Assembly: GCA_964016885.1 (NCBI GenBank) | Contig: OZ024762.1 | Coordinates: 27,528,001-27,592,000, forward strand | Source of the DNA: Eledone cirrhosa | Taxonomy: Eukaryota | Length of the DNA: 64,000 bases | Direction: 5' to 3' | Shown: piece by piece, positions 25,208-26,329 of the stretch | Position numbering within the stretch: the first letter of the stretch is position 1 | Layout of the letters: every line of letters starts with the position of its first letter | Made by a program: the position numbers and the translations under genes | Notes under the pieces: generated by a model | What the model was told of the DNA's origin: nothing | What the model saw: the letters and a program-made list of their open reading frames with translations, nothing else | Database searches by the model: none

Positions 25208-25273
<66 letters not shown>

Positions 25274-25329
25274 GACGTAAAATAAGAAAATTTTTAAAAT
25301 TAAAAATCAACTTACCTACTAAAATTTTC

Positions 25330-25411
25330 ACTCCAACTAATTAGTTTCTGTAAGGGGATAAATATAGTTACATAATATAACTATAGAGAATTCCTTACGT
25401 CATCAGGTAGT
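25330..25411 (-). ncRNA. Hammerhead ribozyme (family A', one stem-I mismatch)
   Basis: Minus strand: actac-CTGATGA-c gtaagg...ccttac a-GAAAC-taatta-GTT-ggagt. Confidence 0.8.
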
Positions 25412-25870
25412 CTATTCTCAGCTAAGTTCCCAGGCGATGCGCGGACACTAGGAACCCATATAAAAATAATAATAATAATTCAGTGGATGGAATAAAGCTA
25501 GCGCGGACTAAATTCCGGAGCACTGAAAAAATTCACTGCCTCTGGTCAGTGGCAGATTCTAAAGAATCAATCACGTGACACTGAGGTTAATCAGTTAGGA
25601 GCGGGGTGGTATTATGACAAGAGCCTACTACTACTATGAATCACCAGTAAATTTTGGCAAGTTTTGCTCAACAAATAATTTGGAGATAAATATAGAGAAT
25701 TAGTACATTTACCAACATATGTGTACAGATGTTCACCTATGCTAGCAAATATATATGTTATGTCTTAGTACCTTTGTGGTTCTATGCAGGGGGATGCAGA
25801 ACAATTATATGAAAGACGTAAAATAAAAAAATTTTAAAATTTAAAAATCAACTTACTTACTAAAATTTTC

Positions 25871-25952
25871 ACTCCAACTAATTAGTTTCTGTAAGGGGAT
25901 AAATATAGTTACATAATATAACTATAGAGAATTCCTTACGTCATCAGGGAGT
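25871..25952 (-). ncRNA. Hammerhead ribozyme (family A')
   Basis: Minus strand: actcc-CTGATGA-c gtaagg...tatagtt/aactata...ccttac a-GAAAC-taatta-GTT-ggagt. Confidence 0.85.
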
Positions 25953-26258
25953 CTATTCTCAGCTATGTTCCCAGGCGATGCGCGGACAGTAGGAACCGAT
26001 ATAAAAATAATAATAATAATTCAGTGGATGGAATAAAGCTAGCGAGGACTAAATTCCGGAGCACTGAAAAAATTCACTGCCTCTGGTCAGTGGCAGATTC
26101 TAAAGAATCAATCACGTGACACTGAGGTTAATCAGATAGGAGCGGGGTGGTATTATGACAAGAGCCTACTACTACTATGAATCACCAGTAAATTTTGGCA
26201 AGTTTTGCTCAACAAATAATTTGGAGTTCTGTACACATATGTTGGTAAATGTACTAAT

Positions 26259-26329
<71 letters not shown>

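Follow-up and report, generated by a model that had tools for sequence, protein, structure and literature searches.

Two tandem arrays in the genome of Eledone cirrhosa carry hammerhead ribozymes whose helices differ in sequence at paired positions. Both lie in a stretch of 64,000 nucleotides (contig OZ024762.1, positions 27,528,001 to 27,592,000), referred to here as the window. Does the difference reflect selection on an RNA fold, and if so, which fold, and in what kind of element? Our reading, to which we assign a probability of roughly 75%, is that the arrays belong to a non-coding repeat of about 12,400 copies whose stem II is kept by compensation, and which is likely Penelope-mobilised, likely cleaved as a dimer and likely braced by a pseudoknot. 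This reading is drawn from sequence comparisons.

Arrays and ribozyme fold

The first array (subfamily A) comprises 557/558-bp units at 3259..4636 on the forward strand, with ribozyme cores at 3362, 3919 and 4477, and runs into a (TA)n tract at 4637-4711. An inverted subfamily A piece (3100..3260, reverse strand) stops at end 2 of the unit and adjoins (TA)n at 3039-3123. The second array (subfamily B) lies on the reverse strand and includes a full 541-bp unit (25270..25810), whose 3' end, termed end 1, adjoins (TA)n at 25207-25269, and a second unit truncated at its 5' end (25811..26226, unit positions 126-541). It is flanked by an inverted piece on the forward strand (26228..26274, unit positions 82-128) that stops at end 2 and is followed by (TA)n at 26275-26331. 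A 5'-truncated copy of a third subfamily (C) is located at 19955..20134 on the reverse strand, with its core at 20101. The 541-bp and 557/558-bp arrays are about 75-80% alike overall and represent two subfamilies of one type I hammerhead repeat. A separate 174-bp stretch, 98% alike, occurs on both flanks of the 557-bp array (2555-2726 and 4659-4832); it may represent a long duplication of the target site or else another small repeat.

The first B hammerhead spans 25330..25411 on the reverse strand, with CUGAUGA at 25400-25406 and GAAA at 25345-25348. A CUGANGA and GAAA core and an NUH cut site (GUU) are present in all five array copies, and the three helices, with the ends meeting in stem I, have the layout of a type I hammerhead. 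Cleavage is predicted after GUU, between 25335 and 25334. Stem I pairs 25407-25411 with 25330-25334 and has one private mismatch in this copy, ACUAC replacing ACUCC. The extended stem II (25350..25398) consists of 6 bp (25393-25398 with 25350-25355), a 7x7 internal loop (25386-25392 and 25356-25362) and an inner hairpin of about 9 bp (here 25379-25385 with 25363-25369), and thus lacks the 7-8 bp and simple loop of Penelope-type hammerheads. Stem III (25336..25345) is a 10-nt palindrome predicted to pair between two hammerheads. The second copy (25871..25960, reverse strand) has the same layout, displaced by 541 bp, and an intact stem I. Among 34 hand-picked representatives, 97.8% of stem I cells, 99.5% of stem II cells and 97.1% of stem III cells are paired.

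Three exact patterns of the stem III region gave 7,115, 5,139 and 184 matches in the 3.0-Gb genome, and the total of about 12,400 is a lower bound on ribozyme copies. At the G10.1-C11.1 pair, the 184 matches are non-C, against 7,115 and 5,139 with the other patterns; the pair is G-C in 179 of 197 copies placed on a tree, a set enriched on purpose for non-C copies. An extra nucleotide, C or A, follows CUGAUGA, as in Penelope-type dimeric hammerheads, and a near-invariant extra A precedes G12. The computed energy of the stem III palindrome is -9.0 kcal/mol as a dimer duplex vs +1.5 kcal/mol as a monomer hairpin, and the predicted monomer fold mispairs the core, with a stem III base pair probability of 0.11. 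Taken together, the monomer mispairing and the palindrome duplex suggest that cleavage at GUU likely needs a tandem transcript, a need described for Penelope-type hammerheads in the available text of PMC4209133 and PMC6765202.

None of the Rfam hammerhead models gave a hit at gathering score in the 64-kb window, and no Rfam hammerhead family matched 25200-26300 at E<=10, an absence that the long stem II likely explains. The length of the inner hairpin varies, down to about 13 nt, and its loop is frequently cUUCGg, a stable tetraloop. Since the hairpin tolerates mismatches and length changes, it appears to be a loosely held closing helix that must pair but is free in sequence. The spacer between stem II and UUCUC ranges from 1 to 4 nt. 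The 3' linker UUUAUCC changes at a rate near background (1.3 vs 1.9 per column), and a pairing scan found no covarying partner for it.

Alignment of the 557-bp array (3259-4636, forward) with the 541-bp array (25270-26226, reverse) revealed four Watson-Crick double changes, divided equally between stem II and the inner hairpin. Subfamily A cores read, in order, CUGAUGA, C, GCAAUG, AAUUCUC, GACAGUU, a 9-nt loop, AACUGUC, UUUAUCC, CAUUGC, A and GAAA, and the B cores at 25406 and 25947 (reverse strand) have GUAAGG/CCUUAC and UAUAGUU/AACUAUA as their stem II and inner hairpin. Exactly 8 of 26 stem positions differ, all as Watson-Crick to Watson-Crick doubles. From A to B, these are C-G to U-A at pair 2 and U-A to G-C at pair 5 of stem II, and G-C to U-A at pair 1 and C-G to U-A at pair 3 of the inner hairpin. 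The chance that 8 changed positions make 4 pairs is 4.6e-4, with complementarity not yet required. The core, the stem III palindrome and both 7-nt linkers are the same in the two arrays; the 9-nt hairpin loop also differs. A preliminary description had reported these four double changes and the constancy of the core, stem III and both linkers, and our alignment agrees with it letter for letter. The third variant (19955-20134, reverse strand) has an A.C mismatch at inner pair 1.

Several other repeats are found in the same 64 kb. Unrelated hammerhead-like families with no Rfam hit, some having a long stem II and a palindromic stem III of their own, occur at 11278(-), 18493(+) and 36098(+); at 5853(-), 6157(+) and 22217(-); at 11808(+) and 14939(+); at 26525(-), 29111(+), 34354(+) and 56670(-); and at 33895(+) and 62891(-). 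An unrelated CUGAUGA motif family, in which the motif is followed by AGAUCUUACAGGCU, is frequent at many places on contig C1 and is possibly another hammerhead repeat. An interstitial TAACCC-type repeat runs into a 49-bp tandem repeat at 42430-43930.

Covariation on a tree of copies

We collected 371 copies from 212 arrays at 280 loci, mostly from the first part of contig C1 and from best hits, with rarer stem II types enriched on purpose. Of these, 265 were long enough (106 were too short) and 217 were aligned after 48 A/B copies had been subsampled away. Dropping 20 more that were unparsed or chimeric left a tree of 197 copies from 156 arrays, in which two long-branch groups were kept. The tree was built from 337 non-ribozyme columns, and internal branches were required to hold at least two arrays (55 branches). 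Covariation was assessed with a custom test rather than with R-scape, under a null in which every branch and every column keeps its count of changes.

Stem II shows 5 co-substitutions, each exchanging one Watson-Crick pair for a different one, vs 0.64 under the null (P<=0.0003). Besides these five doubles, its internal branches hold one change to G.U and one mismatch that was repaired later. Pair 2 occurs in all four Watson-Crick states (U-A in 69, G-C in 53, C-G in 40 and A-U in 35 of the 197 copies). For the inner hairpin, 8 co-substitutions were observed vs 3.4 under the null over five pairs (P~0.009), and 12 vs 4.7 over nine pairs (P<=0.0007), alongside 36 single changes, 12 of them to mismatches. 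An earlier tree of 172 copies gave 7 vs 0.64 for stem II and 6 vs 1.7 for the inner hairpin, and, for stem II, 0 co-substitutions when partners were slid by 1-2 columns. In the 34 representatives, compared by a shuffle that ignores relatedness, 96% of 782 cells are paired, against 36-47% in slid controls, and both sides have changed in 10 of 23 pairs. In this set stem I covaries (C-G in 18, U-A in 10, U.G in 6) and inner pair 1 is unpaired in 8 representatives.

The 20 columns of core and stem III have 0 changes on internal branches vs 39 on terminal ones, and the 10 core columns alone have 0 vs 22. The background averages 1.86 internal changes per column, yet 100 of the 337 background columns are also at zero. 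Terminal branches carry 23 single mismatches that break pairs, as expected under neutral decay of genomic copies. A consensus fold of the whole unit (52 representatives, 17 helices, 478 columns) was also evaluated, and stem II and the inner hairpin both pass a correction for 17 tests; further helices are suggestive or were rejected. The suggestive one is a hairpin of about 21 bp in the tail. A 3-bp helix with P=0.0013 was rejected, two of its three doubles yielding mismatches.

Selection on the RNA fold is thus supported by the sequences once phylogeny is included. The preliminary description had inferred such selection and had allowed that the covariation might vanish on a tree; for stem II it remains strong and significant there, and the inner hairpin covaries, but weakly. 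The interpretation given there is thus supported in part. It is the source copies of a mobile element that are under this selection, and not the genomic copies seen in the window, which decay neutrally.

The four A/B changes were completed on four separate branches, leading to 64, 57, 42 and 40 leaves, and were therefore separate events rather than one conversion. With midpoint rooting, the B state is older. The swap at stem II pair 5 falls on the branch to 64 leaves. On that same branch inner pair 1 went from U-A to G.A, and it became G-C on the next (57 leaves), having passed through an amplified G.A-mismatch subfamily. The swaps at inner pair 3 and stem II pair 2 followed at 42 and 40 leaves, respectively.

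A candidate pseudoknot and competing explanations

The 5' linker AAUUCUC is complementary to GAGAAU, located 2-3 nt 5' of stem I. In the first B copy, GAGAAU lies at 25414..25419 on the reverse strand and its likely partner AUUCUC at 25386-25391, and the two strands are about equally distant from the core. We consider that they probably pair as a pseudoknot, a role that the labels "linkers" and "non-catalytic insert" used in the preliminary description would have missed. In the 34 representatives, 97.6% of GAGAA(U)/(A)UUCUC cells are paired. A hand count of the first 100 of 1,128 matches placed 77 in one register, with a third pair that is G-C in 55, A-U in 19, G.U in 2 and A.C in 1. The remaining 23 come from a sister lineage with GGAAAA/UUUUC, whose copies form one clade of 15 leaves on the tree and therefore represent one clean G-C to A-U event. 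Across the genome, 18 scattered copies of other subfamilies have GAAAA, always without UUUUC, vs 2,753 copies with GAGAA, which indicates that the G-to-A change alone did not amplify. Covariation of the pseudoknot reaches P~0.001-0.003 for five pairs picked after seeing the data and in a hand-set register, and P=0.16 for six pairs on the earlier tree. A second counted event depends on that hand-set register, MAFFT reading it as G.U. The variable spacer between stem II and UUCUC also weighs against the preferred reading. With only one clean event, the pseudoknot is therefore probable and not proven.

A more doubtful alternative is a working hammerhead retrozyme without the pseudoknot, in which the loop strands and GAGAAU would be kept for a non-canonical loop contact or for binding of a Penelope-like protein, and their complementarity would be partly due to chance. 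The single clean covarying event fits this account, as do a minor lineage with UUCAC facing GAGAA, hence an A.A mismatch at pair 2 (6 of the first 100 matches, 4 arrays), and one array with uncompensated GAAAA and UUCUC/UUAUC. In predicted folds GAGAA also has rival partners: U-rich sequence upstream of it in the consensus, and in subfamily B the 3' strand of stem I. When 11-mers of the unit are drawn at random, 8% form at least 5 bp with the linker and 2% at least 6 bp, and the hammerhead of an anole Penelope-like element requires its protein, according to the available text of PMC11167929. However, the sole amplified GAAAA lineage also changed UUCUC to UUUUC, uncompensated GAAAA was not amplified elsewhere, the two strands are about equidistant from the core, and the available part of PMC7936874 describes the mirror image of such an arrangement. 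We retain the pseudoknotted fold as the preferred reading.

It is very unlikely that selection on RNA played little part and that the double changes arose by quasi-palindrome repair, through template switching between hairpin arms or their conversion. Such events are described for RNA stems (bioRxiv 10.1101/2021.04.15.439925, as far as its available text goes), and most stem II changes are doubles with no sampled intermediate. But one-sided intermediates were amplified (G.A and C.A in the inner hairpin, U.C and G.U in stem II), the 7x7 loop was never made palindromic, and stem I covaries even though its arms are about 75 nt apart. Moreover, source lineages show no change in the catalytic core, which is unpaired, and this conservation largely refutes the account. 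Template switching may supply some of the doubles; it cannot alone explain the pattern. Least probable of all is that the structure is kept because it serves the host, as a regulatory or circular RNA that is expressed, and not because it serves propagation of the element: retrozyme RNAs are abundant in other animals (PMC7229834, available text), but the constraint lies on internal, source branches and genomic copies, including that at 25406, gain pair-breaking changes.

Likely mobilisation and relation to known ribozymes

The unit compensated in this way is 520-560 nt long, tandem and non-coding, with a longest ATG open reading frame of 33 aa in doubled units on both strands. Insertions lie in (TA)n, are truncated at the 5' end and are often head-to-head. 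By hand reading, 16 of 29 distinct B loci are head-to-head and flanked by end 1 and, on the opposite side, by end 2, which lies about 115-120 bp beyond end 1. Copies ending before TA/TC number 116 of 371 at end 1 and 107 at end 2, together 223; another 119 continue or end otherwise, 27 are unresolved and 2 have another flank. The tail hairpin of about 21 bp (25690-25800, reverse strand) lies just before the second 3' end, is 92% paired across subfamilies and covaries at P=0.035, uncorrected. Another hairpin terminates at the first 3' end of the unit, and such terminal hairpins may mark reverse-transcription start sites. Directly 3' of the ribozyme, a conserved GUAAGU run (25310-25325, reverse strand) resembles a 5' splice site. 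With UUUGCUAG about 140 nt further on, it is a possible remnant of an intron; an AUG after this candidate intron is present in some subfamilies only. Penelope-like pLTRs can contain introns.

The units are non-LTR retrozymes by sequence definition, being tandem and non-coding with a type I hammerhead in each, and have the layout of non-autonomous Penelope-like elements: 5'-truncated tandems, an inverted copy, an optional tail and a microsatellite target. We thus regard the repeat as likely a non-autonomous, Penelope-mobilised retrozyme. Among the 280 loci, no autonomous partner combining RT and GIY-YIG with the same ribozyme was found. Two arrays, L005 (838-1043) and L220 (370-620), lie directly 3' of same-strand GIY-YIG fragments with no TA run between; the fragments are of different families and constitute weak partner leads. 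Partner hits to a frame at L162 were discarded, as this frame is the element itself in translation. The Penelope-like elements of the window carry hammerheads other than that of the A/B repeat. One of them (26332-29364), with inverted ends, a short, different hammerhead and an RT and GIY-YIG frame at 26781-28310 (reverse strand), is inserted in the (TA)n tract that also holds the 541-bp array. The others are a 609-aa RT and GIY-YIG fragment (53791-55620, reverse strand) and a 360-aa coding fragment (23569-24651, forward strand).

In the proposed explanation, the palindromes of two units in a multimeric transcript would pair to form a double hammerhead cutting at GUU. The inner hairpin would close the 7x7 internal loop, whose 5' strand UUCUC would pair with GAGAA 5' of stem I and so hold stem I parallel to stem II, a role that mutations have demonstrated for pseudoknots of other hammerheads (PMC3088659, available text). 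A Penelope-like RT/GIY-YIG protein, acting in trans, would then start at two internal sites of the RNA and copy it into TA microsatellites. Amplification would be limited to source copies with a working fold, and this would be the selection seen. Selection on a hammerhead fold in source copies bears on what such ribozymes do, given that in an anole Penelope-like element cleavage is dispensable for insertion in vitro (PMC11167929, in its available part). The subfamilies present single and double changes in a natural order, and these lend themselves to direct assay. Rfam does not detect the likely pseudoknotted fold, short-stem descriptors probably miss it as well, and the number of such families may therefore be underestimated.

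A 2014 report had already described compensated hammerhead families from Penelope-like elements (PMC4209133, available text), and the paired changes between the two arrays are thus real but expected. As described in the available parts of the sources cited below, Penelope-like insertions (PMC8557442; PMC11167929) resemble the present repeat in having partial tandems, a 5'-truncated copy in inverted orientation, a 3' tail that may be absent, two reverse-transcription start sites, internal in the anole element, and a (TA)n bias. They differ from it in that the repeat has no open reading frame and has a longer tail, about 115-120 bp against their 30-40 bp. Non-LTR retrozymes (Cervera and de la Pena 2020, PMC7229834; Li, Clavereau and Pollet 2026, bioRxiv 10.64898/2026.07.22.740005), which are expressed as linear and circular monomer RNA, are likewise AT-rich, non-coding tandem units with a type I hammerhead in each, occur as dispersed monomers and short multimers, and are proposed to be non-autonomous Penelope-like derivatives. 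The unit described here exceeds their 170-400 nt in PMC7229834 and falls within the 51-972 nt of the bioRxiv report; unlike them, it has a long stem II with an internal loop, and it is described here at the level of DNA sequence.

Penelope-type hammerheads have a helix II of 7-8 bp with a simple loop, whereas here 6 bp, the 7x7 loop and the hairpin of about 9 bp are combined with the extra A before G12 and the likely pseudoknot. A pseudoknot between stems I and II that replaces the loop-loop contact, as proposed here, is known from other hammerheads (PMC3088659; PMC11300833) and was seen in about 40% of the 2011 representatives (Perreault et al. 2011, PMC3088659); in the crystallised example it replaces helix II (PMC11300833), which is intact here. 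Neither a type I fold with a stem II internal loop and a pseudoknot nor the present repeat family was found described in the literature searched, although supplementary hammerhead variants of PMC4209133, PMC7229834 and PMC3088659 may show this fold. The closest parallel is offered by HDV-like type III hammerheads from toad and termite (PMC7936874), which also have a short stem, an internal loop whose 5' strand forms Watson-Crick pairs with the other arm, and an additional capping hairpin of about 20 nt. The arrangement is a mirror image: their loop and cap belong to helix I of a type III ribozyme, whereas in the present repeat it is helix II that bears them, in a type I ribozyme whose stem III is of the dimer type. 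On balance, we lean towards regarding the present ribozyme as a new architecture: a type I, dimer-gated hammerhead with a stem II internal loop that would be pseudoknotted to the segment 5' of stem I, mirroring the type III fold of the HDV-like RNAs, invisible to Rfam and amplified in a subfamily ladder that preserves each compensatory step, including its mismatch intermediates.
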